57,287 bases of DNA from an uncultured Candidatus Peribacteria bacterium (GTDB taxonomy: Bacteria; Patescibacteriota; Gracilibacteria; UBA4473). Under the pieces are notes generated by a model. That model was not told the origin of the DNA, ran no database searches, and was given only the letters and a program-made list of their open reading frames with translations. The stretch spans positions 1 to 57,287 of the forward strand of contig CAZEON010000001.1 of assembly GCA_964513975.1 (NCBI GenBank). The letters run 5' to 3'. Shown here one piece after another: positions 34,508 to 52,087 of the stretch; positions within the stretch are counted from its first letter, which is position 1, and every line of letters starts with the position of its first letter. The position numbers and the translations under genes were made by a program.

Positions 34508-34565
34508 CCAGCCATCCCATTTTATGGAATACGTATCCGGTTTTATGTTTTTATTAAAAAATCTT

Positions 34566-34622
34566 TTGACTTTTTCTTTGTATCTATGTATTAATGTGTG
34601 AGTACAAGACTACATAAATACA
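34566..34622 (+). promoter_or_regulatory. trp operon promoter (TTGACT-17 nt-TATTAA) overlapped by an 11-nt inverted repeat, TGTATTAATGT-N14-ACATAAATACA
   Basis: The -35 element is at 34566-34571 and the -10 element at 34589-34594. The inverted-repeat arms are at 34587-34597 and 34612-34622, matching 10 of 11 positions. Confidence 0.5.
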
Positions 34623-34624
34623 CG

Positions 34625-35497
34625 ATGCAACTTCTTCAAGATATAGAAACCATCCAGACCACCCAAAAACGCATAGGAGAAGCGCTTGAGAAGCTCTACT
34701 GCATGGGAGAATCTGTGTCTGATATTGTGCAAATAGTGCGGTTCCTCGAATCGCAAAAGGTTGTCGTTCCCACTCCCGAAGGTATGAAATTGTTTGATGT
34801 TTGTGGAACGGGGGGCACGAGGAAACAAAGAATGAATCTTTCCACAGCGCTTGCGGTAAAACTTTCAAAAGAGTTCTCTATTGCGAAACACGGAAACAAA
34901 TCAAGTTTGGGGCGATGTGGGAGTTTTGATATTATTGAACACTCCTCATTCCCGGCGTGCAAGACACCAGAGCAAACGCATGGAGAACTTCGGGATAAAA
35001 ATATTGCGTTTTTGTTTGCACCAGCGTTTCATCCAATACTCGGACTCCTTGTATCGGTTCGGAAGTCATTGCCCCATCCGACAATTTTTAATCTGGTCGG
35101 TCCATTGCTGAGTCCCATGAGCACTCTTACCGCTCAACTGATCGGGGTCAAAGATATTCCCACGGCCCGTAAACTGGCAGAAGCCTGTGCCGAGCTCGGG
35201 AAGGATGCGCTTCTGGTGCACGATACGGTCTTTGATCTGGATGAAGTTTCGATTGGGGGAGAAACGCATTATTTCAAAGTTATTAATGGGAACATTGAAG
35301 AAGGCACGTTTGTGCCGGAAGATTTTGGAATTGAGCGCGTGACAGATTTCACCCTTATAAAAGGCGGAGAAACAAAAGAACAAAATGTGCAGATGTTCCA
35401 ATCATTATTAGACGGAACAGCGACGTCTGCGCAACAAGCGTTCCTTGATATTAATTATCGTGTTGCGAAAGATTTCTTCTCTTCATTTCAACAATGA
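34625..35497 (+). CDS. trpD: Anthranilate phosphoribosyltransferase
   Basis: DVCGTGGTRKQRMNLSTA and KHGNKSSLGRCGSFDIIE match the GTGGD...N.ST / KHGNR..SS..GS.D motifs. An alternative TTG start is at 34598. Confidence 0.85.
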   Translation: MQLLQDIETIQTTQKRIGEALEKLYCMGESVSDIVQIVRFLESQKVVVPTPEGMKLFDVCGTGGTRKQRMNLSTALAVKLSKEFSIAKHGNKSSLGRCGSFDIIEHSSFPACKTPEQTHGELRDKNIAFLFAPAFHPILGLLVSVRKSLPHPTIFNLVGPLLSPMSTLTAQLIGVKDIPTARKLAEACAELGKDALLVHDTVFDLDEVSIGGETHYFKVINGNIEEGTFVPEDFGIERVTDFTLIKGGETKEQNVQMFQSLLDGTATSAQQAFLDINYRVAKDFFSSFQQ

Positions 35498-36270
35498 CCA
35501 TCCTCGATACCATTCTCGAACACAAACTCAAGGAGGTCGCGATGCTTCCCAATTTTATGGAACGAGACTTGAATCCGAATCAGAATTCTTTCGTGGAAGT
35601 TCTTTCTCGTCCGACAGAAAGTCAGATTCATATTATTGCAGAAGTGAAACAACAATCGCCTTCCCAGGGAGCTATTCGTTCGGTAGATTCGTCTCAGCGG
35701 GCGCAATTATATGAGCAATCTGGTGCCACGATATTATCGTGTCTGACAGACAAAGAATTTTTTGGAGGGAGTTGTGAAGACCTTCTCTCGGTAGCCGAAG
35801 CGGTATCAATTCCGGTGATTCGGAAGGATTTTATTTTTACAAAAAACCAAATTGCACAGGCCCGATATTTTGGAGCGGCGAGTTTTTTACTCATGATGGA
35901 AGTGATCGAAAAAACAGGCGCGAATCTTTCAGAACTTATCGAATATGGTCGGGATCTGGGCATGGAACCCTTGGTAGAAATCCAGAACGAAGTTTCCCTC
36001 ATGACTGCCGTACAAGCGGGCGCCAAAATTATTGGTGTGAATAGTCGGAACTTCCAAAAGGAAGGATTGCCGATTGAGTTCGAACGATTTGAAAGGTTGT
36101 TACCGCTGATCCCAAATGGGATTATTCGTGTGGCAGAATCAGGAATGCAGACGTCTGAGGACATTGAAACGGTGCGTGGATTGGCCGATGCGGTTCTTCT
36201 CGGAACAGTGCTTATGAAACAAAAAGATCAGGATGTGCCGAAATTTCTTTCATCTCTTATCACTCAATGA
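35494..36270 (+). CDS. trpC: Indole-3-glycerol phosphate synthase
   Basis: ILDTILEHKLKEV, IIAEVKQQSPSQG, IRKDFI and IGVNSRNF. It overlaps trpD in an ATGA arrangement. Confidence 0.9.
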   Translation: MTILDTILEHKLKEVAMLPNFMERDLNPNQNSFVEVLSRPTESQIHIIAEVKQQSPSQGAIRSVDSSQRAQLYEQSGATILSCLTDKEFFGGSCEDLLSVAEAVSIPVIRKDFIFTKNQIAQARYFGAASFLLMMEVIEKTGANLSELIEYGRDLGMEPLVEIQNEVSLMTAVQAGAKIIGVNSRNFQKEGLPIEFERFERLLPLIPNGIIRVAESGMQTSEDIETVRGLADAVLLGTVLMKQKDQDVPKFLSSLITQ

Positions 36271-37529
36271 ACCAAACGAATTACCGACAAACGCTGTTAA
36301 ATAAAACGGGTCGCTTCGGCGACTTTGGGGGATGTTATGTGCCCGAGATGTTGATGCCCGTTATGAAAAACCTGCAAAAATCTTTTTTTAAAGCGAAAGA
36401 AGACGAAAGTTTTTTACAGGATTTAAAAGATTTGTATGAACACTATTCGGGGAGAGCGACGCCACTTTTTTGTGCCAAAAATCTCACAGAGAAACTTGGG
36501 GGAGCGAAGATATATATTAAAAACGAAGGACTGAATCATACTGGTGCTCACAAGATGAACCATTGTTTGGGACAAATTCTCCTTGCGAAACGAATGGGCA
36601 AAACACGTATTATTGCCGAGACAGGAGCGGGGCAACACGGTGTGGCAACGGCAACGGTGTGCGCGAAATTCGGAATGAAATGTTGTATTTATATGGGACG
36701 AAAAGACTACGAACGACAACGGCCGAATGTCTTTTGGATGGAACGATTGGGGGCAGAAGTGGTCCCTGTTGAAGAAGGAGGTCAGAGTCTTCGCGATGCG
36801 GTGAATGCCGGACTTCGTGATTTGCTTCAAAATCCACACGATACGCATTACTTACTCGGAACGGTCTGTGGGCCGCATCCCTATCCAGTGATGAATACGT
36901 TTTTTCAAAAAATAATCAGCGAAGAAATTCGAGATCAAATGACGAACCTGACGGGGAATATTCCCGATGTTGTTATTGCGTGTGTGGGCGGAGGATCAAA
37001 TGCGATGGGATCATTCTTTGATTTTTTCGACGACGCGAATGTTCAGCTTATCGGAGTGGAGGGAGGCGGGAAGGGGATTACCGAAACCCCAAAGGAGTGC
37101 GATCATGCGGCTCGATTTCAAACCGGAAGTGTGGGCGTGGTGGAAGGTATGAAAACGTATTTCCTCCAAGATAATGATGGACAACTGAAAAATACACACA
37201 GCATTTCTGCGGGACTTGATTACAGCGGCGTAGGCCCACAGATTTCATATCTGCAAAACGAAGGACGTATTCAGATGACCTATGCGACGGACGAAAATGT
37301 TCTCGAAGCGTACGATCTATTGGCGCGCACAGAAGGGATTATTGCGGCACTAGAAAGTTGCCATGCGGTGGCAGAAGCAATTCGACTGGCGTCAATGTTG
37401 GATTCTAGCAAATCTATCGTCGTGAACGTAAGTGGGCGAGGAGATAAAGATCTCTTTATCACAGCTCCGAAGTTTGCGAATGATGACTTCAATCAATACC
37501 TCCATTCACACCTTCAACAATATGAATAA
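36267..37529 (+). CDS. trpB: Tryptophan synthase beta chain
   Basis: GRFGDFGGCYVPE, LNHTGAHKMNH (the PLP lysine), AETGAGQHGVATAT and GGGSNAMG. Confidence 0.95.
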   Translation: MNQTNYRQTLLNKTGRFGDFGGCYVPEMLMPVMKNLQKSFFKAKEDESFLQDLKDLYEHYSGRATPLFCAKNLTEKLGGAKIYIKNEGLNHTGAHKMNHCLGQILLAKRMGKTRIIAETGAGQHGVATATVCAKFGMKCCIYMGRKDYERQRPNVFWMERLGAEVVPVEEGGQSLRDAVNAGLRDLLQNPHDTHYLLGTVCGPHPYPVMNTFFQKIISEEIRDQMTNLTGNIPDVVIACVGGGSNAMGSFFDFFDDANVQLIGVEGGGKGITETPKECDHAARFQTGSVGVVEGMKTYFLQDNDGQLKNTHSISAGLDYSGVGPQISYLQNEGRIQMTYATDENVLEAYDLLARTEGIIAALESCHAVAEAIRLASMLDSSKSIVVNVSGRGDKDLFITAPKFANDDFNQYLHSHLQQYE

Positions 37530-38256
37530 ATTAATGACCCATATCGTAGCGGGGTATCCGGATCTCAAAATATCCGAGAAACTCGTGAAATGCATGGACG
37601 GATTGGGAGTTTCTTTTATTGAAATTCAAATTCCTTTTTCAGATCCGGTCACGGATGGAACAACCTTGATGGGGGCGCAAAAAGTGGCGCTTGAAAATAA
37701 CACCACCACTGAGGATATTTTTCAGTTGATGGAACGATTGAAAACAACGGTGAAAACGCAGCTTCTTTTTATGACTTATTTCAATGTGGTGTATGCATAT
37801 GGCGTAGAGGCGTTTTGTAAACGCGCTGGCGAACTGGGTGTCTACGGATTGATTGTGCCCGATATGCCACTGGATGAAGAAGACAGGGAGCATTATGTAT
37901 CGTCATGTACCCGTCATGGACTCCATGCGATTCAGATTGTTTCTCCACAGACCACGGTCGAGCGATTAAAACAGATTGCCACGGTGGCGACGGGGTTTGT
38001 TTACTGTGTAAGTCGAGAAGGCATCACGGGTGAGGGAACGACCTTGAATCCAAATCTTTCCGAATACCTCCGTACCGTGCGCCAGTATATTGATATTCCT
38101 CTTGCTCTTGGGTTTGGGATTAGTACTCGTGAGCATGTGCAGTCAACCTTGAACCATGCAGATATAGCCGTCATCGGATCGGCTGTTGTGAATGTTTACA
38201 ATAAGGAAAAGAAACTCTCGGATGTGGAAGATTTTTTAACAGAAATAGTACGATGA
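37522..38256 (+). CDS. trpA: Tryptophan synthase alpha chain
   Basis: THIVAGYPD, IEIQIPFSDPVTDGTTLM and GFGIS. The ATG at 37522 overlaps the trpB end by 8 nt. Confidence 0.9.
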   Translation: MNKLMTHIVAGYPDLKISEKLVKCMDGLGVSFIEIQIPFSDPVTDGTTLMGAQKVALENNTTTEDIFQLMERLKTTVKTQLLFMTYFNVVYAYGVEAFCKRAGELGVYGLIVPDMPLDEEDREHYVSSCTRHGLHAIQIVSPQTTVERLKQIATVATGFVYCVSREGITGEGTTLNPNLSEYLRTVRQYIDIPLALGFGISTREHVQSTLNHADIAVIGSAVVNVYNKEKKLSDVEDFLTEIVR

Positions 38257-38864
38257 AAACAAAAATCTGCGGAATTCGAAATACAGAAATGGTGGACGCG
38301 TGCGCGGACAAGAATGTCGCGTATGTGGGATTCAATTTCGTTCCCGATTCTCGGCGATGTGTGACACTGGAGTTTCTTCAAAAACTTGAAACAATTCCCA
38401 AGCGTTCCCAGTACGTGGGGGTGTTTCAAAACCAATCACTTGAAGAAGTGCAATTGCTTTCAACAAAATATAATATGGATTGTGTTCAGCTTCACGGACA
38501 AGAATCGCTCGCCTTCATTAAAGGTGTATCACGACCTGTTATAAAGGGGATTTCCTTACAGAAGAAACATGACATTGAGGCGGTAATGAAGTATCTTGGG
38601 CATGTAAAAATTATTCTTTTAGATGGTCCTCTGCCAGGGAAAGGGAAGGCAGCAGAAACAGCATTGCTCGAGAAAGCGGTACAGTGTTGTCGAGAATCTC
38701 ATCAGGCGTACGCGATTGCAGGAGGGATTCAGGCTGACAATGTGGAAGCGCTTCTCCAGCAGTATCCCGATGCGACTTTTTTTGACACCGCATCCGCCAT
38801 CGAAGACGAACACGGTCACTTTTCAAAAGAACAATTTGATTCCTTTCTCAATAAAATATCATGA
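38253..38864 (+). CDS. trpF: N-(5'-phosphoribosyl)anthranilate isomerase
   Basis: MKTKICGIRN...YVGFNFVPDSRR...QLHG...LDG pattern. It overlaps trpA in an ATGA arrangement. Confidence 0.85.
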   Translation: MKTKICGIRNTEMVDACADKNVAYVGFNFVPDSRRCVTLEFLQKLETIPKRSQYVGVFQNQSLEEVQLLSTKYNMDCVQLHGQESLAFIKGVSRPVIKGISLQKKHDIEAVMKYLGHVKIILLDGPLPGKGKAAETALLEKAVQCCRESHQAYAIAGGIQADNVEALLQQYPDATFFDTASAIEDEHGHFSKEQFDSFLNKIS

Positions 38865-39901
38865 CATTTACGACAGTCTCCCCACTTCCAAAGGCTTCTG
38901 ATGTGCTCGCACAATACCCACTTTCTTCAGAAACGAAAAAGCGTATTGCTCAGCATAGACAGGAAATACAGGACATCTTATCAGGAAAAGATAAACGACT
39001 CCTGCTGATCATCGGGCCGTGTAGTGCGTGGCCAGAAGACGCAGTGATTGAGTACGCTCAAAAACTCAAAGCGGCGACCGAATCCTTGAAAGACAAAGTG
39101 AAAGTTGTTTTCCGGGTCTACACACAAAAGCCACGAACCACGTTTGGATGGAAAGGCGCATTGCTCCATCCAGATCCCTTCGGAGAACCGGATGTTCCGG
39201 CTGGTATTGCGTATTGCCGAAAAATGATGCTTCACATTGCAGAAGAAATAGACCTGCCCATTGCGGATGAAGTGTTGTACACAGACCTTTGTCTGCCGTA
39301 CTTGAGTGACTTGTATAGTTACGGATGTATCGGGGCTCGGTCATCAGAATTGCAACGAAAACGAATGGTTGCGTCGGGGATCGATTTTCCAATGGGAATG
39401 AAAAATCCTACGAGTGGTGATCTGACAAAAGCCGTTCAGAGTGTGCTTGTCGCACAAGAGGGGAACGGCCCATTTCCACATCTGGGAGAAGTGGTTGAAA
39501 CGACCGGGAACCCGTACGCGCATCTTGTTTTGCGAGGGGGCGGAGGACGACCCAATTATTACCCGCATGTGCTCGATCTCGCGACGGAAATGATTTTGGC
39601 ACAAAAGATCCAAAACCCATCTATCATCGTTGATGCGAGTCATGAAAATAGTATCAATGGGAATGGGAAGAAAAACACACTCAGCCAACTCGTCGTTGCC
39701 GAAAGTGTGCTCACGTACAGGAAAGAGCATCCTGAGGGAGCGGTGAAAGGAATTATGATGGAGAGCTTTTTGCATCTGGGAAACCAAGATATTCCGGCCG
39801 ATGGGGCGGAGTGCGTCAGTGGAACCTCACTGACTGATGCGTGTTTAGGATGGGAGGAAACCGAAGCTTTTTTGAAAGAAATTACGTCATATCTCTCATG
39901 A
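38861..39901 (+). CDS. aroG: 3-deoxy-D-arabino-heptulosonate-7-phosphate (DAHP) synthase, class I alpha, copy 1 (embedded in the trp operon)
   Basis: RLLLIIGPCSAW, VFRVYTQKPRTTFGWKGAL and VDASHENS. It overlaps its neighbours by 4 nt on both sides. Which isozyme (F/G/H) it is was not determined. Confidence 0.88.
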   Translation: MTFTTVSPLPKASDVLAQYPLSSETKKRIAQHRQEIQDILSGKDKRLLLIIGPCSAWPEDAVIEYAQKLKAATESLKDKVKVVFRVYTQKPRTTFGWKGALLHPDPFGEPDVPAGIAYCRKMMLHIAEEIDLPIADEVLYTDLCLPYLSDLYSYGCIGARSSELQRKRMVASGIDFPMGMKNPTSGDLTKAVQSVLVAQEGNGPFPHLGEVVETTGNPYAHLVLRGGGGRPNYYPHVLDLATEMILAQKIQNPSIIVDASHENSINGNGKKNTLSQLVVAESVLTYRKEHPEGAVKGIMMESFLHLGNQDIPADGAECVSGTSLTDACLGWEETEAFLKEITSYLS

Positions 39902-41217
39902 AAGCCTTTCCACTCTCTTCATTCCCTGGGCTTACCCCACTGTCCCTTTTTGCATCTCTGCGAAAAGCCTACGGGGCGCCAGCGATGTTGCTCGAATCAG
40001 CGGTGCAAGATGAAACCAATCGGATTTCTTTTGTGGCGTGTGATCCTGTACAAAAGGGAGAAGTATCAGACGAGATAGCATCGCATCTTCGTGAAACACT
40101 CACTCGTTGTCACAGCTTTTCGGAAAATCCGTATTTTTCTGGAGGTCTCATGGGGAGTCTTTCGTTCGAGTCTGTTTTTGATTTTTCTTCTAAATATTCA
40201 TCGCAACACACAGAAGATATTCCGCGAACGCTGTTGTATGAGTTTGGATTGGTCTGTGTTTTTGATCACGTGCAGAATCTCATCACCATTCTTCAGCATC
40301 CAAAAAACAAATGTGAAAACATCGAAGAAATTCTTCGTGAGACAGAACTGATTCCCGCGGTACCGCTTGATACACAAACAAAGCGAATACAAGATTCGCC
40401 GGATCAACAATTTCTCGACGGAGTGAAAACCGCGCGCGAGGCTATTTATAACGGAGAAGTGTTCCAGCTGGTGTTGTCTCATGTGTTTGAGGAACCCCTT
40501 CCTCATGGCCGAGAACTGGCGCTCTATAGTGCCTTGAAACAACTCGAACCGACGACCCATCTCATCCTTGCCGATTACGGTGACCACGGAATCTATACCT
40601 GTGCGAGTCCAGAGATTATTGGAAAAAAAGTGGGATCACGATTACTTGTTTCGCCCATAGCTGGAACTCGTCGTCGGAAATTAACGGAGCAAGAAAACAA
40701 AATAACGGAAGCAGAACTTCTTTCTGATCCCAAAGAAAACGCGGAACACGATATGTTGGTGGATTTGGGACGCAATGACTTAGGGCGGATTTCTCTCCCC
40801 AAAACCGTTGAAGTAACCAAGCATAAATACCTTCAGGCGTATGCACACGTGATGCATTTACTCAGCGATATTGAAGCGGAAATAGATCCGCAGTACGATG
40901 CTGTCGATTTTTTACAAAGTATTTTTCCAGCGGGGACGCTGAGCGGGGCTCCGAAATTACGAGCTATCAACCTTATCCAATCATTAGAAAAAAGTTCTCG
41001 AGGACTCTATGGAGGCGCAACGGGAATGATCGCTACCAACGGAGATTTGCAGATGGCCATCAACATCCGAGGTGTGCACATACAAGACGGTCGCGCTAAA
41101 ATACAAGTTGGAGCGGGTATTGTAAAAGACAGCGTTGGGGAGTATGAATGGAAAGAACTGCAGAATAAATCACAAACACTCAGACGCATTCTCACATCTC
41201 TCCCTTCAGATCTATGA
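39898..41217 (+). CDS. trpE: Anthranilate synthase component I
   Basis: Chorismate-binding C-terminus: GTLSGAPKLRA, SRGLYGGATG and GAGIV. The start was trimmed to ATG 39898, which overlaps the upstream TGA. Confidence 0.9.
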   Translation: MKAFPLSSFPGLTPLSLFASLRKAYGAPAMLLESAVQDETNRISFVACDPVQKGEVSDEIASHLRETLTRCHSFSENPYFSGGLMGSLSFESVFDFSSKYSSQHTEDIPRTLLYEFGLVCVFDHVQNLITILQHPKNKCENIEEILRETELIPAVPLDTQTKRIQDSPDQQFLDGVKTAREAIYNGEVFQLVLSHVFEEPLPHGRELALYSALKQLEPTTHLILADYGDHGIYTCASPEIIGKKVGSRLLVSPIAGTRRRKLTEQENKITEAELLSDPKENAEHDMLVDLGRNDLGRISLPKTVEVTKHKYLQAYAHVMHLLSDIEAEIDPQYDAVDFLQSIFPAGTLSGAPKLRAINLIQSLEKSSRGLYGGATGMIATNGDLQMAINIRGVHIQDGRAKIQVGAGIVKDSVGEYEWKELQNKSQTLRRILTSLPSDL

Positions 41218-41789
41218 ACATCTTGATTATCGATAACTACGATTCATTCACCTATAACTTGGTGCAATTCGTTCGTGCATTTGGTGCGGAGGTGATTGTG
41301 AAACTGAATGACGAAGTGACGCTTGATGACATTGAAAAAATGGATATCGAGGGAATAATTCTTTCCCCTGGTCCTGGAACTCCACTGAACGGAGACGATG
41401 TAGGGATTTGTACGGACATCATTAAAAACGTGTCGCTCCCCATCCTTGGCGTGTGTCTCGGGCACCAGCTTATCGGACATCTGCACGGAGGAACGGTCAC
41501 CCACATCGAACCTCAACACGGGCAACCATCGACCATTCACCAGATTGGATCGAGTCCACTTTTTGCAAACCTACCGAACCCATTCGATGCGATGCGGTAC
41601 CATTCGCTTGTGGTTGGGAAAGAAAATTTTCCAGAAGAACTTATTATCACCGCAGAGACGGAAGATGGTATTATTATGGCTGTCGAACACACCAACAAAA
41701 CACTGTACGGCGTACAATTTCATCCCGAATCAATCGGGACTCCGCACGGAAAAGAAATTATCGGTAATTTTTTACGAATCTGCCAATAG
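41214..41789 (+). CDS. trpG: Anthranilate synthase component II (glutamine amidotransferase)
   Basis: ILIIDNYDSFTYNL, GVCLGHQ (catalytic Cys) and VQFHPES. Confidence 0.9.
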   Translation: MNILIIDNYDSFTYNLVQFVRAFGAEVIVKLNDEVTLDDIEKMDIEGIILSPGPGTPLNGDDVGICTDIIKNVSLPILGVCLGHQLIGHLHGGTVTHIEPQHGQPSTIHQIGSSPLFANLPNPFDAMRYHSLVVGKENFPEELIITAETEDGIIMAVEHTNKTLYGVQFHPESIGTPHGKEIIGNFLRICQ

Positions 41790-42911
41790 ATGGGTGATTG
41801 ATTGCTCGCATCCGATGAAACCGGATATGTTTATGCGACCATTCTGAAAGATATATAAGCCATGTTTTTGTACGATTTGTTCGATTGTTTCAGAAGAAAG
41901 GGGAAGGAGTGCAAACAATCCTTCGCCGTCTAATGCTGTAATCCAGGACGAAGGAGCGTCTTCATCGGTTAGTAATTTCTGAAGTATTTTGCGAGTTCGA
42001 GCCAGTTGATTTTGTATTCGATTGATATCTTCTTCCCATTCAGATGCGTAGTTTTTTTGTACCTGTTGCATGATGAGACTTCCCCATCGAGGAGGCATAG
42101 AGATGCTTCCACGCATTGCGGCTTGCATGTAACTTTCCATTGCTTTTGCTTGTGATGCATCAGGGCATTTTATCATCAAAGCTCCGAGACGATGACCGTA
42201 CATTGTCGCGGTTTTGGAGAAACTCACGCCGAGCATTACCTGATCAACGCCTTTCCACATATTTGAAACCCAAGAAGTATCAGCTTTCAAACCAGCTGCT
42301 AATCCTATGTAGGCACCATCCATGTACACCCATATTTTTCGTTTATTTACCATTTGTATGAGTTCGTCCCGTTGTGCTTCATTTAGATTTTTTCCAGTTG
42401 GATTGTGAGCACCGGTGGCTTGGAGAATGAGTACAGAGCCTTCGTCAGCGGATTCAATCGCATTTTTATAAGCGTTCCAATCGATTTCGCATTTTTTGTT
42501 TATATGAGGAAAGGTTGTCTGCGTTCCGTGTTCCAAAAGCACAAAATAATTGTCCCATGTAGGAATAGGTATTAAAAAGGGACCCCAGCCACACCGTTTT
42601 CCGATTTGGTCCATGATCCAACAAGCGTGCGTTCCACCAGCTGTTTGTTGAAGGGCTACACAATCATTCTTCTCGGAAGGAAGGTACAGGTCTCGGACCC
42701 ACTCCAAAAAGGAGCGATCTCCTCCGATAGGCAGATATCCATAATCATCATGTTTCACGTGGGTAGCAGCTTGTTGCACACTTGGCATGACATATCCTTT
42801 TTGGTTTTGTAAAAGGATGCCAATCGCGGCATTTATCTTACTTGGTCGAGGGTCTTCAAGGTATCGACCGTAGATATTAAAAATCGGATCTGGAGGTATT
42901 TGGTCCCACAT
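41772..42911 (-). CDS. Aromatic/aspartate aminotransferase (AspC/TyrB-like, class I)
   Basis: INAAIGIL, GAHNPTG, SFSKTATMYGHRLG (the PLP lysine) and GRINISG. The start was trimmed to ATG 42911. The 3' end overlaps trpG by 18 nt. Confidence 0.8.
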   Translation of the reverse strand: MWDQIPPDPIFNIYGRYLEDPRPSKINAAIGILLQNQKGYVMPSVQQAATHVKHDDYGYLPIGGDRSFLEWVRDLYLPSEKNDCVALQQTAGGTHACWIMDQIGKRCGWGPFLIPIPTWDNYFVLLEHGTQTTFPHINKKCEIDWNAYKNAIESADEGSVLILQATGAHNPTGKNLNEAQRDELIQMVNKRKIWVYMDGAYIGLAAGLKADTSWVSNMWKGVDQVMLGVSFSKTATMYGHRLGALMIKCPDASQAKAMESYMQAAMRGSISMPPRWGSLIMQQVQKNYASEWEEDINRIQNQLARTRKILQKLLTDEDAPSSWITALDGEGLFALLPLSSETIEQIVQKHGLYIFQNGRINISGFIGCEQSITHLLADS

Positions 42912-42962
42912 GATAGAAAAATGGTTGACATTTTTTTGCACTATAAGTAGGGTTCCTTCGAA

Positions 42963-43022
42963 ATGCAAATGACTACTTATGGATTCTTCTTTTATTCTCC
43001 TTGGGCTAGAGCCTGGGCGTAA
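42963..43022 (+). CDS. Putative attenuation leader peptide MQMTTYGFFFYSPWARAWA (7 aromatic residues of 19)
   Basis: ATG CAA ATG ACT ACT TAT GGA TTC TTC TTT TAT TCT CCT TGG GCT AGA GCC TGG GCG TAA, read directly. It lies 39 nt upstream of a terminator hairpin and 81 nt upstream of the DAHP synthase ATG. No clear Shine-Dalgarno sequence precedes it. A possible TTGACA (42925-42930)-17 nt-TAGGGT promoter would make the transcript nearly leaderless. Confidence 0.55.
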   Translation: MQMTTYGFFFYSPWARAWA

Positions 43023-43060
43023 GAAAGGAATCTAATTATTTAGTCACTTCTCTTCATCCC

Positions 43061-43086
43061 ACAGGCTCGCAGAGTCTGTTTTTTTT
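43061..43086 (+). terminator. Attenuator terminator (ACAGGCTC-GCA-GAGTCTGT plus T7)
   Basis: An 8-bp stem with one G-U pair, followed by a T-run, 17 nt before ATG 43103. Its 5' arm (43062-43068) is complementary to GAGCCTG (43009-43015) inside the leader ORF. Confidence 0.65.
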
Positions 43087-43102
43087 ATAGTACCAAAATA
43101 CC

Positions 43103-44155
43103 ATGTCACATATTACTCAACACACACTCCCAACATACGCAGAAGTTTTCACGCGACTGCCACTTTCTCCAGAACTTCAATCAAAGATCGAACAGGATCG
43201 TCTTGAAATAGAAAACATCCTTATGGGGAGGGATCCTCGAAAGTTCATGATTATTGGCCCCTGTAGCAGTTGGCCATCGGAGGAAGTCGTTGAATACGCT
43301 CGTCGTCTTGCGCCTTTGGCAGAGGAATTACAAGATGTAATCAAGATTGTTATGCGAACGTACATCCAAAAACCTCGCACGATTGCAGGTTGGATGGGGC
43401 CGTTAGTTCAGCCAGATCCATTTGCAGAACCACATATTCCGACCGGTATTTTTTACTGTCGAGAAATGATGCTGCAGGTTTTGGAAACAGGACTCCCTAT
43501 TGCTGATGAAATACTCTTTCCTCGGTACCAGAGTTACTTTCGAGATCTTTTAACCTGGGCGGCTATTGGAGCTCGATCGAGTGAAAACCAAGAACATCGT
43601 GTTGTGGCTTCATTGTTGGAGTTTCCTATCGGTGTCAAAAATCCTACGTCAGGAAGTATTCCCATAGGAATCAATTCAGTGTTGGCCTGCCAAACGCCGA
43701 ACTTCATGGCGGTAGGAGAGAATCAGGTAAAAACATCAGGAAATCCTTGTGCGCATCTCGTACTGAGAGGGGGGAATGGCAATCATAATATTGGACAGGA
43801 GCATCTTGAGCAGACAGTGCAATTTTTGCAGGAAAAAGGTGTTCAAAATCCAAGCGTTGTCGTCGATATAAGTCATGATAATACTCGTGATAAAAACGGT
43901 GTGAAGCAATACGAACGACAAACAGAGGTTCTTTGGGAGACACTGAATATCATGTCTCAAAACCCAAAAATAATGTCGACAGTGAAGGGATGGATGGCAG
44001 AAAGCTTTCTTGAAGAGGGAAGTCAAAATCTTGCGAAGTGTTCGCATGATTCTGTTATCCCAGGAAAATCCATCACGGATGGATGTCTCGGGTGGGATAC
44101 TACTCAAGATCTTTTAATAACGCTCGCAAATAAATTAAGAACCACTTCACCATAA
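43103..44155 (+). CDS. aroG: DAHP synthase, class I alpha, copy 2
   Basis: KFMIIGPCSSW, VMRTYIQKPRTIAGWMGPL and VDISHDN. It is a paralog of 38861-39901. Confidence 0.88.
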   Translation: MSHITQHTLPTYAEVFTRLPLSPELQSKIEQDRLEIENILMGRDPRKFMIIGPCSSWPSEEVVEYARRLAPLAEELQDVIKIVMRTYIQKPRTIAGWMGPLVQPDPFAEPHIPTGIFYCREMMLQVLETGLPIADEILFPRYQSYFRDLLTWAAIGARSSENQEHRVVASLLEFPIGVKNPTSGSIPIGINSVLACQTPNFMAVGENQVKTSGNPCAHLVLRGGNGNHNIGQEHLEQTVQFLQEKGVQNPSVVVDISHDNTRDKNGVKQYERQTEVLWETLNIMSQNPKIMSTVKGWMAESFLEEGSQNLAKCSHDSVIPGKSITDGCLGWDTTQDLLITLANKLRTTSP

Positions 44156-44901
44156 AAACGATTGCGACTATCGGCATCATAGGACACGGTCGAATGGGAA
44201 AGTTATTTGAGAAAATGTTCGAACCTTTCTCAGATACAATTTTTGTGCGCATATACGATCGTAATAATTTTCATCCACAAGATCAGTTTGTGGATTTTGA
44301 ATCAGTATGTGATGCGGATCTTATCATTCCGTGTGTTCCCATTCCTGATTTTGAATCGGTTATAAAAAAAATGGTTCCTCATCTTCATGCTGGGCAAACA
44401 ATTCTGCATATTTGTTCTCTGCAGACATACCCCAAGGAAATACTGCGGAAACATGTACCGCCATCAGTACATTTAATTGGGAGTCATCCTATGTTTGGTC
44501 CACAAACACTGGCGGCTTGTGAGAACTCCTTCGAAGGGTTGAATTTTGTGGTGGATCCGATTTTTTGTTCGGATTCCATTTTCAATGAAGTGACGGATTT
44601 CTTGCGAAAACTGCAGTTTAACGTCATTCAGATGAATGCGGAGGAGCACGATGCTCGAGCTGCAAAATTTCATTTTATTTCTCATGTAGTGGCAAATATT
44701 CTCACAAAACTTGAATTAGAACACACACCCATTGATACAAAATCATACGAGTTTCTCTTTAATTTTTTGGATCGTATAGATCCCGACCCAGTGCTCATGC
44801 AAAGCATGTTGCAACACAATCCTTTTGCAAGAATCGAACTAGAACGATTTAACGAAAGTTTTGCCGATATAAAAGATATTCTTTCTCAATTCAAATCATG
44901 A
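44152..44901 (+). CDS. tyrA: Prephenate/arogenate dehydrogenase; a non-canonical ATA start overlapping the upstream TAA stop is inferred
   Basis: The first ATG is at 44194, but the in-frame upstream codons encode KTIATIGIIGHGRMGKLF, the GxGxxG Rossmann motif. No ATG, GTG or TTG lies in frame back to the stop at 44131. HPMFGP is present downstream. Confidence 0.7.
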   Translation: MKTIATIGIIGHGRMGKLFEKMFEPFSDTIFVRIYDRNNFHPQDQFVDFESVCDADLIIPCVPIPDFESVIKKMVPHLHAGQTILHICSLQTYPKEILRKHVPPSVHLIGSHPMFGPQTLAACENSFEGLNFVVDPIFCSDSIFNEVTDFLRKLQFNVIQMNAEEHDARAAKFHFISHVVANILTKLELEHTPIDTKSYEFLFNFLDRIDPDPVLMQSMLQHNPFARIELERFNESFADIKDILSQFKS

Positions 44902-46034
44902 CAAATCCACTTCCGCTTTCGGTTTACACACTTGGTCCCAAAGGTTCGTTCAGCGCACAAGGATCGGAAATATTCTTGGCTTCGGGGTGTTCCGATTCTG
45001 CGAATCCGCAGATTCAACTTTGTGATTCATTTCCTCGTATTTTCGAATCTGTAAAAGCTCATCCTGGTTCACTGGGAATTGTTCCTCTACAAAACGAATC
45101 AACGAGCAGTATTCATGAAAATGTAGATATGTTTTTTCAAGATTCAAGCCTGTGTATTTGGGCTGAGTTCTTGCTTCCGGTCAGATTGCATGTGCTTGGA
45201 CCTCCTGGCACTCAATTTGAAGACATCACACAACTTCATTCGCATCCAAAGGCCTTTGAGCAGTGTAAAACGTTCACAAATTCTTTTTCTGGAGAAATTC
45301 ATTACGGGAAAAGTACGTCTGCGCTTGCACAAAAAATAAAGAACAATGGAGAAAAAAATGTGGCGGTTCTTGGGGGGGAGGCCCTTATTCATCAAGGACT
45401 TTGCATCCTCAAACCCAACGTGCACGATCATGCGGTAAACGAAACACAGTTTGTTGTGTTTGGGGTTCAAGGCACGGCACCGAAATGTTTCCCAAAAAAT
45501 TCCAAATGGACGGTCCATTTTGAATGCCAACACAAACCGGGTTCTTTGGCACAGGTATTACAACTCGTGGCATCCCAAGGTGGAAATTTAATGAAAGTTG
45601 AGTCGCGCCCGATTCCAAATCAACGAGAACGATTTCGGTTTTGGCTTGATATAGATGCCACGCATGCGAAACCAACTTTGTACGAAGAGCTAAAAGCCTC
45701 GACGGTGGATTTTCATTGTGTTGGTCAATACGCACCAGGACAAGTACTTGATCTTGATAGTCCACATTCTCGAATATCGTTGTTGCGTCGACAGATAGAC
45801 TCAGTTGATACGGATATTGTAGATTTATTAATCCATCGACAATCGTTCGTTCGGTCGATCGCTCAGGAGAAGGAAAAAGAGAATATACCAGTAGAACAAC
45901 AGGAACGTTTTGCAGAAATTCTTCAGTCGAGAATCCTTCAAGCAAAGAACAATGATCTCAATATTGAGTTTGTACGAAAACTCTATAATCTTATCCATAC
46001 AGAATCTGTTTCCTATCAGAACGATAAGCCATGA
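44898..46034 (+). CDS. pheA: Prephenate dehydratase + ACT domain + C-terminal AroQ chorismate mutase
   Basis: The prephenate dehydratase domain has TLGPKGSFS, and the ACT domain has KPGSLAQVL...ESRP. The C-terminus reads LLRRQIDSVDTDIVDLLIHRQ...IPVEQQERF...LYNLIHTESVSYQ, the chorismate mutase pattern. Confidence 0.85.
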   Translation: MTNPLPLSVYTLGPKGSFSAQGSEIFLASGCSDSANPQIQLCDSFPRIFESVKAHPGSLGIVPLQNESTSSIHENVDMFFQDSSLCIWAEFLLPVRLHVLGPPGTQFEDITQLHSHPKAFEQCKTFTNSFSGEIHYGKSTSALAQKIKNNGEKNVAVLGGEALIHQGLCILKPNVHDHAVNETQFVVFGVQGTAPKCFPKNSKWTVHFECQHKPGSLAQVLQLVASQGGNLMKVESRPIPNQRERFRFWLDIDATHAKPTLYEELKASTVDFHCVGQYAPGQVLDLDSPHSRISLLRRQIDSVDTDIVDLLIHRQSFVRSIAQEKEKENIPVEQQERFAEILQSRILQAKNNDLNIEFVRKLYNLIHTESVSYQNDKP

Positions 46035-47245
46035 AAACAGCTCCAATAATTTCTATCCTTGGTTCTAAGTCGATTGCTCAGCGAGCACTCATCTGTGCCG
46101 CACTCTGCGCGAAACCGACCATCCTGCACAATGTTCCAGATGGCGACGATGTAGGACATCTCATGCAGGCACTCGTGCAGTGTGGTGTGGAAATAAAACC
46201 GTTGGAAGAATTCTCCTTTCAAATCATTCCTCCGAAAGAGTTCACCCTTCAAAATCCAGATTTCAACGTCGGACACGGAGGAGCACCCTTGCGATTTCTC
46301 ATGAGTTTCCTTGGTCTTATCCCGGGTAAAAAAATACTCGATGGATCGGAACGATTACGAGAACGACCAATTGGCCCCTTTATTCACGCACTCAAAAACG
46401 CAGGGGCAGACATCAACGACAAACTTCCGCTTACGATCGGACAGCATAAATTGTCGGAAGAAATCACGATACGGGGAGGCGATAGTAGCCAAGGTATCAG
46501 TTCACTCCTCTTGAGTGGAGTCGCTTTGGGAGTCAAAAAAATAATCATCACTGGAGAACGAACGTCCGCTTCGTACCTCAACCTGACACAAAAAGTCCTC
46601 GCGGACTTCGGCATTTTGATTGCCGAGACGATGGACGGGTACATGCTCATGGGGCATTACACATCGCATGAAACGTACTTTGTCGAGCCAGATTGGGCGA
46701 GTGCTGGGTATTTAATTGGGGCTTCATTACTCCAAAGAAAACCGCTCCTCATCCCGCAGCTCACCCTAAATTCACCACAACCCGATGCGCTCATTGTTCC
46801 CGCTCTGCAGGCCATGGGAATGAAAATCGGGCAAACACCGGAAGGACTGCTTTTCACTCCGTCAGGAGCTTTTCAGAGTCCAGGAACAGTCGATTGTCGT
46901 CTCTTCCCAGACAGTGCGTTGACGCTGGCAGTGCTTGCGGCTTTTTGCAAAGGAACCACAACCCTCACGGGTCTCTACACACTTCCGCTCAAGGAATGTG
47001 ATCGACTCACATCCCTTCACACAGAACTCGCGCAGATGGGGATACTGAGTGAAGTTACTGCCGATTCCATCACTATTCACGGGGGAGATCCCAAGTTTGC
47101 CACGATTCAAACCTATGATGATCATCGGATGGCGATGGCGTTTGGGATGGCACAAGTGTGTTTTCCAGCATTGCGAATTGAGAACCCCGAGGTTGTTTCC
47201 AAATCGTTCCCTGGGTTTTGGGATATTCTCACCGCTCTCAAATAA
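46031..47245 (+). CDS. aroA: 3-phosphoshikimate 1-carboxyvinyltransferase (EPSP synthase)
   Basis: LGSKSIAQRALICAAL, RERPIGP and DDHRMAMAF. Confidence 0.87.
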   Translation: MKTAPIISILGSKSIAQRALICAALCAKPTILHNVPDGDDVGHLMQALVQCGVEIKPLEEFSFQIIPPKEFTLQNPDFNVGHGGAPLRFLMSFLGLIPGKKILDGSERLRERPIGPFIHALKNAGADINDKLPLTIGQHKLSEEITIRGGDSSQGISSLLLSGVALGVKKIIITGERTSASYLNLTQKVLADFGILIAETMDGYMLMGHYTSHETYFVEPDWASAGYLIGASLLQRKPLLIPQLTLNSPQPDALIVPALQAMGMKIGQTPEGLLFTPSGAFQSPGTVDCRLFPDSALTLAVLAAFCKGTTTLTGLYTLPLKECDRLTSLHTELAQMGILSEVTADSITIHGGDPKFATIQTYDDHRMAMAFGMAQVCFPALRIENPEVVSKSFPGFWDILTALK

Positions 47246-48142: not shown

Positions 48143-49272
48143 GGAAACCCTGATAAAAAAAGAAAAAAGAGTAAAATAGGGACATGAAACAATTCACCTT
48201 ATTGGAAACAGCGACGAATGGACGTCGAGTGAGAGCAGATAAATTTTTGGAAGAGATGGACAAAGCCATCCCTTGGGGAAATTTTTTGGGATTAATTTGT
48301 CCAAAATATTACAAGAAGAAAGATAATCGCGGACGAAAACGAGCAGATGTGGAAACACTTTTGAGAATATATTTTTTGCAGCAATGGTTCAATTTGGGTG
48401 ATTTATCAGCAGAAGAAATGGTGCACGACAGGCTCAGTTTTCGACGATTTATAAGTTTGGATATTTGTGAAACAAGTCTTGATGAAACAACTATTTGTAA
48501 GTTTCGACATTTTTTAGAAGACCATGAATTAACCGAGAAAATGTTTGAGAAAGTAAATAATATTTTGGAAGAAAAAAACTTAATGATACGAGATGGAACA
48601 TGTGTCGATGCAACAATAATAGAAGCATCTGGCTCAACAAAAAATAAAAAGAATGAACGAGATTTAGAAATGAGTTCGACAAGGAAGGGAATGAATTATC
48701 GATTTGGAATGAAAGTGCACACAGGAGTTGATGCAAAATCAAAACTAATTCACACAATGAAAGTAACAACAGCAAGCATTCATGATTCACAAGTTTTTGA
48801 TGAATGTTTACATAGAGAAGAACAAGCGGTTTTTGCTGACAAAGCATTCGTTTCCGCAGACAAAAAACGGAAATTTAGAGCAGAAGGAAAATATTGGGGT
48901 GTGCAAGAGAAAGCTGTTCGTGGGAAAAAACTCTCATCATCTCAAAAAAAGAGAAACAAAAAAACGGGATCTGTTCGTGCTGGTGTTGAGCATCCATATT
49001 TAATGATCAAACATCACTGGGGACACAAAAAAGTCCGATATAAAGGACTTGAAAAAAACACAGTTCAATTCTTTTCGTTGTGTTTTTTAGCAAATCTACA
49101 TCGAGTACGGTTTGCTCTCGCAAAAGTTTAAAAACTTTTGCAGGAGAAGTGTGTCTAAATTCCCCAAGATAATCTAAAAAAGAGCGAGAAATCGCTCAAA
49201 AGACTGCTTTCTCTTAAAAAATAAAATGATTTATGAAATAAACCCTGATAAACCTAATTTATCAGGGTTTCC
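48143..49272 (+). mobile_element. IS5-family insertion sequence (1130 bp) with 15-bp perfect terminal inverted repeats and a TTAA target duplication
   Basis: The left inverted repeat GGAAACCCTGATAAA is at 48143-48157, and the right one TTTATCAGGGTTTCC at 49258-49272. TTAA occurs at 48139-48142 and 49273-49276. An internal copy of the left repeat at 49240-49252 forms a 13-bp hairpin with the right repeat. Confidence 0.9.
48184..49131 (+). CDS. IS5-family DDE transposase (InsH-like N-terminal domain)
   Basis: 315 aa. The N-terminus has the DUF772-like ...LLRIYFLQQWFNLGDLSAEEMVHDRLSFRRF. The C-terminus is the DDE_Tnp_1 type (DATIIEA ... ADKAF ... VEHPY). Confidence 0.88.
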   Translation: MKQFTLLETATNGRRVRADKFLEEMDKAIPWGNFLGLICPKYYKKKDNRGRKRADVETLLRIYFLQQWFNLGDLSAEEMVHDRLSFRRFISLDICETSLDETTICKFRHFLEDHELTEKMFEKVNNILEEKNLMIRDGTCVDATIIEASGSTKNKKNERDLEMSSTRKGMNYRFGMKVHTGVDAKSKLIHTMKVTTASIHDSQVFDECLHREEQAVFADKAFVSADKKRKFRAEGKYWGVQEKAVRGKKLSSSQKKRNKKTGSVRAGVEHPYLMIKHHWGHKKVRYKGLEKNTVQFFSLCFLANLHRVRFALAKV

Positions 49273-49951
49273 TTAAAAAGTAAATTAGAAAAGGAAGGGA
49301 GTGAAGTGTACGAAAAAATCGTACGGTTGAAAATGCTTGCGATTGATGGCAAAAATAGAGAAACGGATTGTTTTTCTACAGAAGATTTACTTCGTCTAAT
49401 TCAATCAATCCCTTCTCCAAAAGCAGAGCCGTTTAAATTATGGTTAGCACGGGTGGGGTATGAGCGAATTGAGGAAACGGAAGATCCAGAATTAGTTTTT
49501 AATCGGGCGATGAAGACATATCTTCAAAAAGGATATTCGAAAGAATGGATCAATCAGCGTCTCAAAAGTATTGAGGTACGAAAGGAGCTGACGGATGAAT
49601 GGCAGTTGAGAGGGGTTCAGGCGGGGATGGAATATGCGATTCTTACGGATGAGATTACCAAGGCGTGGGCGAACAAAAGCGTCAAAGATTACAAAAAATT
49701 CAAAGGGCTTCAGAAGGAGGGGTTGCGTGATAATATGACGAATCTTGAATTGGTTCTTAATATGTTGGCAGAGGTGTCTACAACTGCTATTTCCCAAAAG
49801 AAATACCCGGAAGGACTGGAAGCCAATAAGCGCATGGCGCGCAAAGGAGGTGGTGTTGCAAAGAAGGCAAGAATAGAGATTGAGGTGCAGACGGGAGAAG
49901 ATGTCCTGTCCGAGAAAGGGGTTCAGAAGAGGATATAGGGGAAAATCCTAT

Positions 49952-50237
49952 TCAGAGCCGGTTCGCAAGCTTGAATGAGTTGCAGGAAGGAGCTACTATG
50001 TCACCATTCCTTTGGATTATATTAGGCCATCGGCTCTGCTTTCGAGAGCCTCCCCTCGGGGTCTGAGCTCGGGGTCGAAGACGACCCTCGTGGAGAGGAG
50101 GAAAGCGAGGAATGCTCACTTCGAGTGGTGACCTCAGTGGAACCAGGCTCGAAGAAGAATTGGGGTGGAGGGAACGGCAGAAGGTGGTGGTGAAGAAAAG
50201 AGGGAAGAAGTTGATTATTGAGGATTGGGAAGGGTGA
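49952..50237 (+). pseudogene. AbrB-like gene remnant, copy B (5'-truncated, with a 130-nt insertion at the same codon as copy A)
   Basis: It aligns with copy A from SEPVRKL onward. The insertion at 50027-50156 equals the copy A insertion plus extra blocks of 60 nt and 27 nt. There is no start codon, and a TGA lies in frame. Confidence 0.7.
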
Positions 50238-50272
50238 GAGGGAAAAGAGGCTCGTGCTAGACACCTTACAGA

Positions 50273-51307
50273 CTAGCTAAAGATAGAATAAGTGACCCCT
50301 TTTCCGACTCCGTGTTTCTGAATTTTTTTCATTCGCACTAAATCTTGAAGATCTTTTTTAAGAGTTGGACGCTTAAATTGTGGTAAATGATCGTGGATTT
50401 GACCAATAGAAAGTTCTTCTTTTTCTAAAACCCCCAATATCAAATTTTTTCTTCCATCCATATTTAATTTAGTAGTTATGAAATAAGTAGATTGTTTTTT
50501 ATTTGTGATTAAATCGTAGACCAAGGTCATTGTTCCCAAAAGTTCTTCAGCAATGAAAAAGGAAAAAGAATTAAGATTATTTGTTTGATCAATCTTCTCA
50601 AGTTCTAAGAGGTATTTTCTTCTGTTTTCGTTTCTAATAACACATGGAGGGTATCCATCTTGCATAAGAATCAAGTTCATTAGTAATCGTGACATACGAC
50701 CATTCCCATCATCGAAAGGGTGAATACTGACAAATCGATAGTGAAAAATACTTGCGCGCTCTATCGCAGAAAGTAACTGTGTTTTTTTTGAATAATACCA
50801 GGTTAATAATTTTTCCATCTCTATTTGAACCTGCTCAGGTTCAGCATAGTGATGAATTTTTCCAGAAACAGTTAAAACATGATTTGGACGAATTTTATAT
50901 CTTCCAATATTAATCGGTTTTTTTATTAAACTCCCGCCGGCTCCTTTAACATATATATGATCAATACCTTTAAGCAAAAGTCCGTGAAGCGATTTAATAA
51001 AATGTTCAGTAATCTCTTGTTTCTTTTGTACAATATTATCTAAAACCTCAATAGCTTCAGCGTGATTTTGAGCTTCTAAAAACTCTTTCAGTGACCTCCC
51101 CTCAGAAGTGAGACCTTCCTGAAGAAAGAATGCGGTTTCTCCTAGGGTAAGCGTATTTCCCTCAATAGCGTTTGAGTTATAGGTCCATTCGATTCGCAGT
51201 CGATCTTGAATAGCTCGATTTAAACTGTCATCAAATGGTTTATGAGCTCCAATTTTTTCCTGAAGCCTCGTAATTTGATCGAAAAGGTTTTGAAAAGAAG
51301 TTTTCAT
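50273..51307 (-). CDS. Fic-family protein with a C-terminal winged-helix domain, auto-inhibited class
   Basis: Active site HPFDDGNGRMSRLL, inhibitory motif SNAIEG, and C-terminal ...KKIQKHGVGKGVTYSI. Confidence 0.88.
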   Translation of the reverse strand: MKTSFQNLFDQITRLQEKIGAHKPFDDSLNRAIQDRLRIEWTYNSNAIEGNTLTLGETAFFLQEGLTSEGRSLKEFLEAQNHAEAIEVLDNIVQKKQEITEHFIKSLHGLLLKGIDHIYVKGAGGSLIKKPINIGRYKIRPNHVLTVSGKIHHYAEPEQVQIEMEKLLTWYYSKKTQLLSAIERASIFHYRFVSIHPFDDGNGRMSRLLMNLILMQDGYPPCVIRNENRRKYLLELEKIDQTNNLNSFSFFIAEELLGTMTLVYDLITNKKQSTYFITTKLNMDGRKNLILGVLEKEELSIGQIHDHLPQFKRPTLKKDLQDLVRMKKIQKHGVGKGVTYSIFS

Positions 51308-51311
51308 TTTA

Positions 51312-51378
51312 TGGATATTTTCATTCTTATTATATCCATAAATATCCAGAAGTCAACAATTATATCCATAAATATCCA
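51312..51378. promoter_or_regulatory. Phased TATCCA repeats upstream of the second Fic gene (two 20-nt direct repeats ATTATATCCATAAATATCCA plus one inverted TGGATA)
   Basis: TATCCA occurs at 51333, 51343, 51363 and 51373, a spacing of 10/20/10 nt. TGGATA is at 51312-51317, next to the start codon. Confidence 0.5.
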
Positions 51379-51535
51379 TAAAATTATGAATATAAATACC
51401 AACTATTTTAACCTTCCGCCGAAATTCCCCGCCCGTAAGGGCGAGGGCTGGAGAGAATCCAGAATCTTTTAAATACAAACCCCCTAAATCCCCCTTATCA
51501 GGGGGGAGGAAAATACTTTTTATGGTACAATCATC

Positions 51536-51745
51536 TACGTATTCGAATACGTATTCGTGTACGTACTTAATAAAACATCATAGAACGTCCAAAGACAGTG
51601 TCAGAAACGGTTCGTAAGCTCGAATGAGTTGCAGGAAGTCACTATTTCTTTGGACTTTATTCGAGAATTGGGGTGGAGGGAACGGTAGAAGGTGGTGGTG
51701 AAGAAAAGAGGGAAGAAGTTGATTATTGAGGATTGGGAAGGGTGA
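51536..51745 (+). pseudogene. TACGTA palindrome plus AbrB-like gene remnant, copy C (no insertion, ATG to ATA, premature TAG)
   Basis: The palindrome is at 51536-51570. The coding remnant reads ...VTISLDFIRELGWRER*KVVVKKRGKKLIIEDWEG, showing the uninterrupted junction. Confidence 0.7.
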
Positions 51746-51811
51746 TGAAATGTTAAATTTATCGAAAATTTCCTATTTACAAAAAATGACTTCAGCGTAA
51801 TTATAAAAATC

Positions 51812-52087
51812 ATGACAAAACAGGAGTTGAAAAAGAATCAAATAGTTATTTATAAAACTTCAGATAATGAAGTTGGGTTCGAGGTGAAATTTGATGGTGA
51901 AAGCGTTTGGCTTAGACAAAACCAAATTGCAGAGCTTTTTGAGAAAGATAGAACTGTTGTTACTCGACATATAAACAATATTTTTAAAGACAAGGAAATG
52001 GATAAAAAAAGCAATGTGCAAAAAATGCACATTGCAAATTCTGATAAACCCATAAATCTTTATAGTTTGGATGTGATGGGGATATGA
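51812..52087 (+). pseudogene. RhuM-family gene fragment (N-terminal about 90 codons only)
   Basis: IVIYKTSDNEVGFEVKFDGESVWLRQNQIAELFEKDRTVVTRHINNIFKDKE...YSLDV matches the RhuM N-terminal region. Full-length members are about 3-4 times longer, by my recollection. Confidence 0.6.

Follow-up and report, generated by a model that had tools for sequence, protein, structure and literature searches.

A candidate Phe/Tyr-responsive leader-peptide attenuator ahead of an aromatic amino-acid operon in a Candidatus Peribacteria contig

We analyzed a 57,287-nt stretch of DNA (contig CAZEON010000001.1 of GenBank assembly GCA_964513975.1; hereafter the window), which, according to the label of its metagenome-assembled genome (MAG), comes from an uncultured Candidatus Peribacteria bacterium of the Candidate Phyla Radiation (CPR). 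Its DAHP synthase-tyrA-pheA-aroA operon is preceded, in this order, by a short open reading frame (ORF) in which Phe and Tyr codons are clustered, a hairpin and a T-run (Table 1). The parts of the sequence, their alternative folds and the architecture of related loci suggest that this element is probably a ribosome-mediated leader-peptide transcription attenuator, which would set the expression of the operon by the supply of charged tRNA-Phe and tRNA-Tyr.

In the proposed mechanism, transcription would proceed from a TTGACA-17-TAGGGT promoter whose –10 element ends 9 nt before the AUG, and ribosomes would translate the 19-codon ORF on an RNA that is leaderless or almost so. When Phe and Tyr are plentiful, the ribosome would reach the Trp/Ala codons and the stop codon and cover the antiterminator strand GAGCCUGGG (43009–43017); the terminator (43061–43079 and U8) would then form, and transcription would stop before the DAHP synthase gene. 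In untranslated RNA, a long hairpin (42970–43046) would sequester the same strand, and the terminator would form as well. A ribosome stalled with its aminoacyl (A) site in the Y-G-F-F-F-Y block would melt the 5΄ half of the long hairpin and expose 43009–43017, which could then pair with the terminator 5΄ arm (43059–43068), so that no terminator would form and the operon would be read through.

The leader ORF and its alternative RNA structures

Seven of the 19 sense codons of the leader ORF, which ends with TAA at 43020–43022, encode aromatic residues (three Phe, two Tyr and two Trp), and Y-G-F-F-F-Y is contiguous. This composition agrees with a sequence-only reading of the same DNA that preceded our analysis. 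The hairpin which that reading had placed at 43061–43079 was recovered by folding and, independently, by a terminator scan; it has 8 bp including one G-U pair, a GCA loop and a folding energy of –9.3 to –9.6 kcal/mol. The T-run behind it is longer than had been described (T8, not T7) and lies 15 nt, not 17 nt, before the DAHP synthase ATG at 43103. GAGCCTG (43009–43015) is the exact reverse complement of CAGGCTC (43062–43068), as had been claimed, and the two further pairs proposed beyond a bulge can be formed by GG (43016–43017) with CC (43059–43060) across the bulged A43061.

Table 1. Features of the candidate attenuator region and of the operon that follows it
Feature	Position	Strand	Evidence or remark
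Predicted –35 TTGACA of the leader promoter	42925..42930	+	Sequence reading; TTGAC[A/G/C] equally placed in 8/9 leader types
Predicted –10 TAGGGT (TAnnnT), 17-nt spacer, 9 nt before leader ATG	42948..42953	+	Promoter comparison across types
Leader ORF, 19 codons + TAA, MQMTTYGFFFYSPWARAWA	42963..43022	+	Sequence reading and short-ORF scan; first ATG also kept in L010 (ATGCAAAC...)
Candidate regulatory codon block Tyr-Gly-Phe-Phe-Phe-Tyr (TAT GGA TTC TTC TTT TAT)	42978..42995	+	A-site here gives P(terminator) 0.00–0.27
Long imperfect hairpin ('1:2', anti-antiterminator)	42970..43046	+	Minimum free energy structure of the free leader
Antiterminator strand GAGCCUGGG (Arg-Ala-Trp-Ala codons), pairs with 43059–43068	43009..43017	+	Constrained folding, duplex energy
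Terminator hairpin ACAGGCUC-GCA-GAGUCUGU	43061..43079	+	Terminator scan and folding
T8 run, intrinsic terminator	43080..43087	+	Sequence reading and terminator scan
DAHP synthase (type I), first gene of the operon	43103..44155	+	Pfam PF00793, E = 3e-47
Short prephenate dehydrogenase (tyrA-like)	44194..44901	+	Pfam PDH_N, E = 4e-16
Prephenate dehydratase-ACT-chorismate mutase fusion (pheA-like)	44898..46034	+	Pfam PDT, ACT, CM_2
EPSP synthase (aroA)	46031..47245	+	Pfam PF00275, E = 4e-74
Divergent class I/II aminotransferase (AspC/TyrB-like), context, outside the switch	41772..42911	–	Pfam PF00155

We computed the folding of the leader both free and with RNA blocked from the 5΄ end to 12 or 15 nt beyond the A-site codon, which represents a ribosome. 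The free leader (minimum free energy –35.8 to –42 kcal/mol; z = –2.2 compared with shuffled sequences) formed the long hairpin together with the terminator. The 5΄ strand of the long hairpin (42970–43006) includes the aromatic codons, which pair with the stop-codon region, and its 3΄ strand (43011–43046) includes the stop codon and the antiterminator strand, which is buried in the apex. The probability of the terminator, P(terminator), was 1.00 in free RNA, 0.19–0.27 with the A-site at Tyr-6 through Phe-10, 0.00 with the A-site at Tyr-11 or Ser-12, and again 1.00 from Pro-13 onward, including both Trp codons and the stop codon. Correspondingly, the antiterminator pair 43011:43066 had a probability of 0.74–1.00 with a stalled ribosome (0.997 for the stall at Tyr-11/Ser-12) and 0.00 otherwise. 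The duplex between the ORF end and the terminator 5΄ arm reached –16.8 kcal/mol (RNAduplex), compared with –9.6 kcal/mol for the terminator, and was equalled by 4 of 300 shuffled sequences; the sequence-only reading had asked for a comparison of these two helices. These results agree with the core of the switch proposed there, in which the two helices are mutually exclusive, a stall at FFFY relieves termination and a ribosome at the stop codon terminates. Two elements are added to it here, namely the long hairpin as the 1:2 element and the predicted promoter 9 nt before the ATG.

This promoter is defined mainly by comparison. In all eight of the leader types described below that lie in true intergenic DNA, TTGAC[A/G/C]-N16–18-TAnnnT is found 8–9 nt before the leader ATG (seven types by comparison and one, L023, by eye), and within the 57 kb of the window the leader is the only short-ORF site with such a layout. 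From the distance between the –10 element and the ATG, transcription is predicted to start ~0–3 nt before the AUG, and the leader ORF would accordingly be leaderless or nearly so; the same layout led us to take 42963, not 42969, as the leader start. One condition set by the sequence-only reading was that transcription begins upstream of 42963; according to our prediction it begins essentially at the AUG, which would still fit the model. A Shine–Dalgarno motif was recognizable within 25 nt upstream in none of the 28 long ORFs of the window, and the organism appears to start translation without such sites. Because the genes of the window generally lack these motifs, their absence before the leader is unremarkable.

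A sigma-70 scan also reported a minus-strand promoter-like sequence, TTTGCA-18-TATAGT (42969–42940), which faces the divergent aminotransferase and may serve it. Since this site overlaps the leader start and the leader promoter, the leader operon and the aminotransferase may have overlapping divergent promoters.

Conservation of the leader among related loci

An exact-protein look-up with the window DAHP synthase gave no match. The protein is 96% identical to that of locus L001, on a MAG labelled Candidatus Peribacteria, and 61% identical to that of L002, on a Candidatus Gracilibacteria MAG, and its closest named database homologues are mostly from CPR bacteria. The taxonomy of the relatives is that of their MAG labels, with which the earlier remark that the genome looks CPR-like is consistent. 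A metagenome scan yielded six further loci, of which L003 and L005 were informative. The accession of L001 is CAZVBV010000003.1 and that of L003 is Ga0307929_1000565. As some relatives are labelled Gracilibacteria, genetic code 25 (UGA = Gly) was considered for the window and was ruled out because TGA terminates 11 of its 32 long ORFs.

We distinguished nine leader types on Peribacteria/Gracilibacteria-type metagenome contigs (Table 2), with DAHP synthases 53–68% identical to that of the window; the copies of the window type in L001 and L003 are 96–97% identical. All nine types share one arrangement, in which an aromatic-pathway operon is preceded by a GC hairpin with a T-run behind it and these in turn by a short ORF containing a Phe/Tyr run. 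The Phe/Tyr codons are retained through synonymous TTC/TTT and TAT/TAC changes. In eight types, including that of the window, the end of the ORF (positions –16 to +1 from the stop codon) is complementary to the terminator 5΄ arm. These duplexes have energies of –12 to –20 kcal/mol, were equalled by 0–11 of 300 shuffled sequences and consist of helix sequences unrelated between types. Masked folding at equilibrium was carried out for seven types, without L022 and L023, and six of the seven flipped from antiterminator to terminator exactly where the aromatic run ends. Conservation in related genomes, which the sequence-only reading had named as a check, was found for the aromatic run in all nine types and for the architecture in eight, and strict covariation was weak, with one compensatory and one disruptive change.

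Table 2. Leader types
Loci	Leader peptide	Remark
Window, L001, L003	MQMTTYGFFFYS[P/S]WARAWA	
L010	MQTARYQFFFYYFQP	68% DAHP synthase identity, same divergent aminotransferase
L002, L005	MRNQFFFANYFYFLATAG	
L011	MRNQFFANYFFYFLAQAGS	
L012, L013	MRKQFFWANYFYFLAKAGS	
L014, L015, L016	MNRSFFYFGYFFLV	
L018, L019	MNALNFFYFFFNSDSVGLF	
L023	MQKYFSYFFFWNNA	
L022	MKTQTLCYTPQTAAQCGWFAFAYYWFA	Between trpF and DAHP synthase

The comparison of peptides also bears on the possibility that the product of the short ORF has a role beyond sensing, either as a functional hydrophobic micropeptide or by acting in trans. One leader peptide, Sinorhizobium peTrpL, has documented functions in trans (PMC7298713). However, the Phe/Tyr run is the sole peptide feature common to all nine types, and the sequence, length (14–27 aa) and termini otherwise vary from type to type. 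With only the aromatic run conserved, codon sensing is to be expected rather than a folded or binding peptide, and we regard a micropeptide function as extremely unlikely.

Several observations weigh against an attenuator of this kind. The predicted –10 element TAGGGT is weak (3/6 match), a generic sigma-70 scan did not report the plus-strand promoter, and the mechanism presupposes transcription–translation coupling in CPR bacteria. L022 has no significant antiterminator. In L010 the terminator wins at equilibrium because it is very strong, and the antiterminator appears in a co-transcriptional (truncated) fold. In the Gracilibacteria subfamily most paired positions are invariant, and column-wise covariation is nearly uninformative because the helix cores do not vary; one antiterminator pair outside the terminator stem changes from A-U to G-C in L011, which is compensatory, and this change is offset by a disruptive A-A at the same pair in L005. 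Pair counts were not taken from the alignment of the window with L010, in which the terminator is out of structural register. Moreover, the element is not universal among the relatives. No leader was seen ahead of L009/P0004 (67% identical DAHP synthase, 51-nt gap), nor in L004, where a chorismate mutase gene lies directly upstream and nothing was seen ahead of that gene, nor ahead of L020 and L021 (Peregrinibacteria CG22-type). L017 is ambiguous, with a possible MKTYMFFFHTQ... ORF and no hairpin with a T-run. Only AT-rich noise was found in the distant homologues L006–L008, and the contig of P0002 (68% identical, same operon order) begins 55 nt before the gene.

The strength of the window locus by itself is also limited. 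Among 500 dinucleotide shuffles of 43006–43058, 7.2% gave P(terminator given stall) < 0.3 (native, 0.003), so that the single locus is only moderately significant; taken alone, it is suggestive, not conclusive. We accordingly considered that the ORF is untranslated or is not a sensor, and that the region terminates transcription partially and constitutively, acts as a pause site or is switched by a protein or small ligand, with the aromatic codons a by-product of T-richness. TTY and TAY codons arise readily in T-rich intergenic DNA, shuffled sequences mimic the switch at the above rate, the leader ORF has no Shine–Dalgarno sequence, and the window contains eight other small ORFs with at least five aromatic residues in eight. 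However, these eight ORFs lie at unrelated positions, and in a scan reaching 130 nt beyond each of them, none was followed by a hairpin with a T-run. The lack of Shine–Dalgarno sites appears to be genome-wide. No riboswitch or T-box model matched the leaders when the whole window and relatives were scanned at gathering thresholds, nor 42900–43110 of the window at E-values up to 10. The reading frame, the stop codon beside the antiterminator and the fixed distance from the promoter are kept across eight to nine divergent lineages despite nucleotide change, and synonymous changes preserve the Phe/Tyr codons. We therefore judge this explanation very unlikely and retain that of a translated attenuator.

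Amino acids probably sensed and comparison with known systems

The sequence-only reading had proposed that all three aromatic end products are sensed together. This was not supported at the window locus, where stalls at Trp codons still terminate. The two Trp codons (43002 and 43014) lie 3΄ of the zone in which a stall relieves termination; with the A-site at either, the antiterminator strand is hidden under the ribosome and P(terminator) is 1.00, a value reached even when the mask extends no further than 43011. The UGG triplets are accounted for by the G-rich stem sequence GGGCUAGAGCCUGGG. Furthermore, L010, the nearest distinct orthologue, has the same synteny and no Trp codon, and the trp operon of the window has its own DAHP synthase and no Trp leader ahead of it. 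On the other hand, both Trp codons are kept in L001 and L003, DAHP synthase feeds all three aromatic branches, and more distant relatives carry Trp inside or beside the aromatic run (FFW in L012, FFFW in L023 and GWFAFAYYWFA in L022); in L012, a stall at the Trp of the run gave P(terminator) 0.00. It is therefore plausible that Trp contributes in other members of the family. For the window, an attenuator relieved by stalls at any of the three amino acids seems unlikely, and we read the element as Phe/Tyr-responsive and its UGG triplets as a consequence of the G-rich stems.

At Rfam gathering thresholds, no family matched the leaders in scans of the window and of eight related loci. The best sub-threshold match was RF01859 (Phe_leader), with 20.2 bits compared with a gathering threshold of 55 (E = 0.28, over the full model length 1–125), and the leader is therefore not a member of RF01859. 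It would work like pheL without belonging to this family. As in the E. coli pheL-pheA system (RF01859; pheL groups, PMC3082878), an ORF with Phe codons, 1:2 / 2:3 / 3:4 logic and an intrinsic terminator precede a gene for chorismate mutase/prephenate dehydratase; here, however, the codon block includes Tyr, the operon starts with DAHP synthase and adds tyrA and aroA, and the start is predicted to be leaderless, not Shine–Dalgarno-led. With E. coli trpL (Yanofsky model) it shares the choice of antiterminator or terminator by ribosome position and the termination of untranslated RNA, whereas the regulatory codons of trpL are Trp codons; those of the present leader fall outside the relief zone, and the trp operon of the window shows no leader. 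The pheL/trpL-type logic suggested by the sequence-only reading is consistent with constrained folding, in which termination follows both from the absence of translation and from its completion, and read-through from a stall.

Among known systems, aroR of Corynebacterium glutamicum comes closest in function; this leader peptide with an F-Y-F run precedes the aroF (DAHP synthase) operon (Neshat et al. 2014, as related in PMC11802643; first noted in PMC4046766), for which only Phe limitation had an experimental effect (PMC11802643). Compared by function and description, both systems have mixed Phe/Tyr codons, an operon headed by DAHP synthase and ribosome-stalling attenuation, which is proposed for the window leader. 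According to Morbach (2000), as cited in PMC4046766, corynebacteria can synthesize leader peptides from RNAs that lack a ribosome-binding site, and the same is predicted for the window leader. They differ in phylum (Actinobacteria as opposed to CPR/Patescibacteria), in operon content and in the length of the run, which is longer here (Y-G-F-F-F-Y). In mycobacteria, leaderless polycysteine short ORFs are described as Cys-responsive attenuators (bioRxiv 10.1101/834739); the window leader would resemble them as a regulatory ORF at or near the transcript 5΄ end that senses an amino acid by its own translation, and differs in the amino acid and the phylum.

Leader-peptide attenuation is established in Actinobacteria and some Firmicutes (PMC2965389) and is textbook knowledge in Proteobacteria. 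The mechanism is not new; the leaders are unlisted in Rfam, and their interest is phylogenetic and lies in the conserved leaderless layout. No paper that connects leader-peptide attenuation with CPR/Patescibacteria came up in full-text literature searches. On balance, we favor the view that these loci are the first recognized family of amino-acid-sensing attenuators in CPR bacteria (Peribacteria/Gracilibacteria), with the leader ORF on a leaderless transcript starting 8–9 nt past the –10 element. If so, transcription and translation in these ultra-small bacteria with reduced genomes would be coupled tightly enough for attenuation, and some of them would be regulated aromatic-amino-acid prototrophs; by contrast, most amino-acid biosynthesis is reportedly missing from Ca. 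Peribacter riflensis, a described member of the Peribacteria (PMC4736985). If functional, the element would point to a CPR lineage with its own, regulated synthesis of Phe and Tyr (and Trp), a matter relevant to host dependence. It would also define a compact family of regulatory RNAs, with no fewer than nine sequence types, that can be tested; it would aid the annotation of CPR MAGs, in which such ORFs are missed or called hypothetical, and its fixed promoter–AUG spacing would make it a natural model for how a regulatory ORF is initiated without a leader.

Neighboring genes and further observations

Pfam matches for all four genes agree with the operon as named in the sequence-only reading, and its products are enzymes of the Phe/Tyr branch. 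At 235 aa and with no domain other than PDH_N, the prephenate dehydrogenase is unusually short; homologues of ~200 aa are present in L011, L012, L014 and L018 (26% identity). In the pheA-like protein, chorismate mutase is C-terminal (PDT-ACT-CM), which is the reverse of the E. coli P-protein order. The divergent aminotransferase has a likewise divergent orthologue in L010 (52% identical), by which its start was fixed at the ATG at 42911 and the intergenic region at 42912–43102.

A complete trp operon, trpD-trpC-trpB-trpA-trpF-DAHP synthase-trpE-trpG, is located at 34598–41789 (+), and its DAHP synthase paralogue (38861–39901) is 46% identical to the putatively attenuated one. Ahead of trpD (34507–34625 examined), there was no Trp-codon leader or terminator, only a promoter-like TTGACT...TATTAAT. 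In L022, the aromatic leader with Trp, Phe and Tyr (2294–2470) lies inside an operon without its own promoter and may represent a differently designed, internal attenuator.

A palindrome, TTTCGCGGGA / TCCCGCGAAA, occurs repeatedly in the intergenic DNA of Gracilibacteria-type contigs, immediately 5΄ of the leader promoter and elsewhere (L002, 3520–3800; L005, 1100–1330; L012, 1990–2170 and 2915–2960; L017, 520–540). It is often accompanied by G/C-rich inverted repeats (e.g. ccccctttc...gaaaggggg) and could be a repeat element or an operator.

The only riboswitch of the window is a SAM-I riboswitch at 8412–8505 (+; 52.5 bits, above gathering), directly 5΄ of metK (S-adenosylmethionine synthetase, 8516–9667), and the genome therefore also employs riboswitch control. 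Just 3΄ of aroA, a low-GC (0.33–0.38) stretch at 48184–55392 encodes a DDE transposase (48184–49131), a BRO-N protein (49306–49938), a Fic protein (50273–51307, –) and a large fused N6-methylase/specificity restriction–modification protein (52216–55392), and looks like a mobile or defence island.

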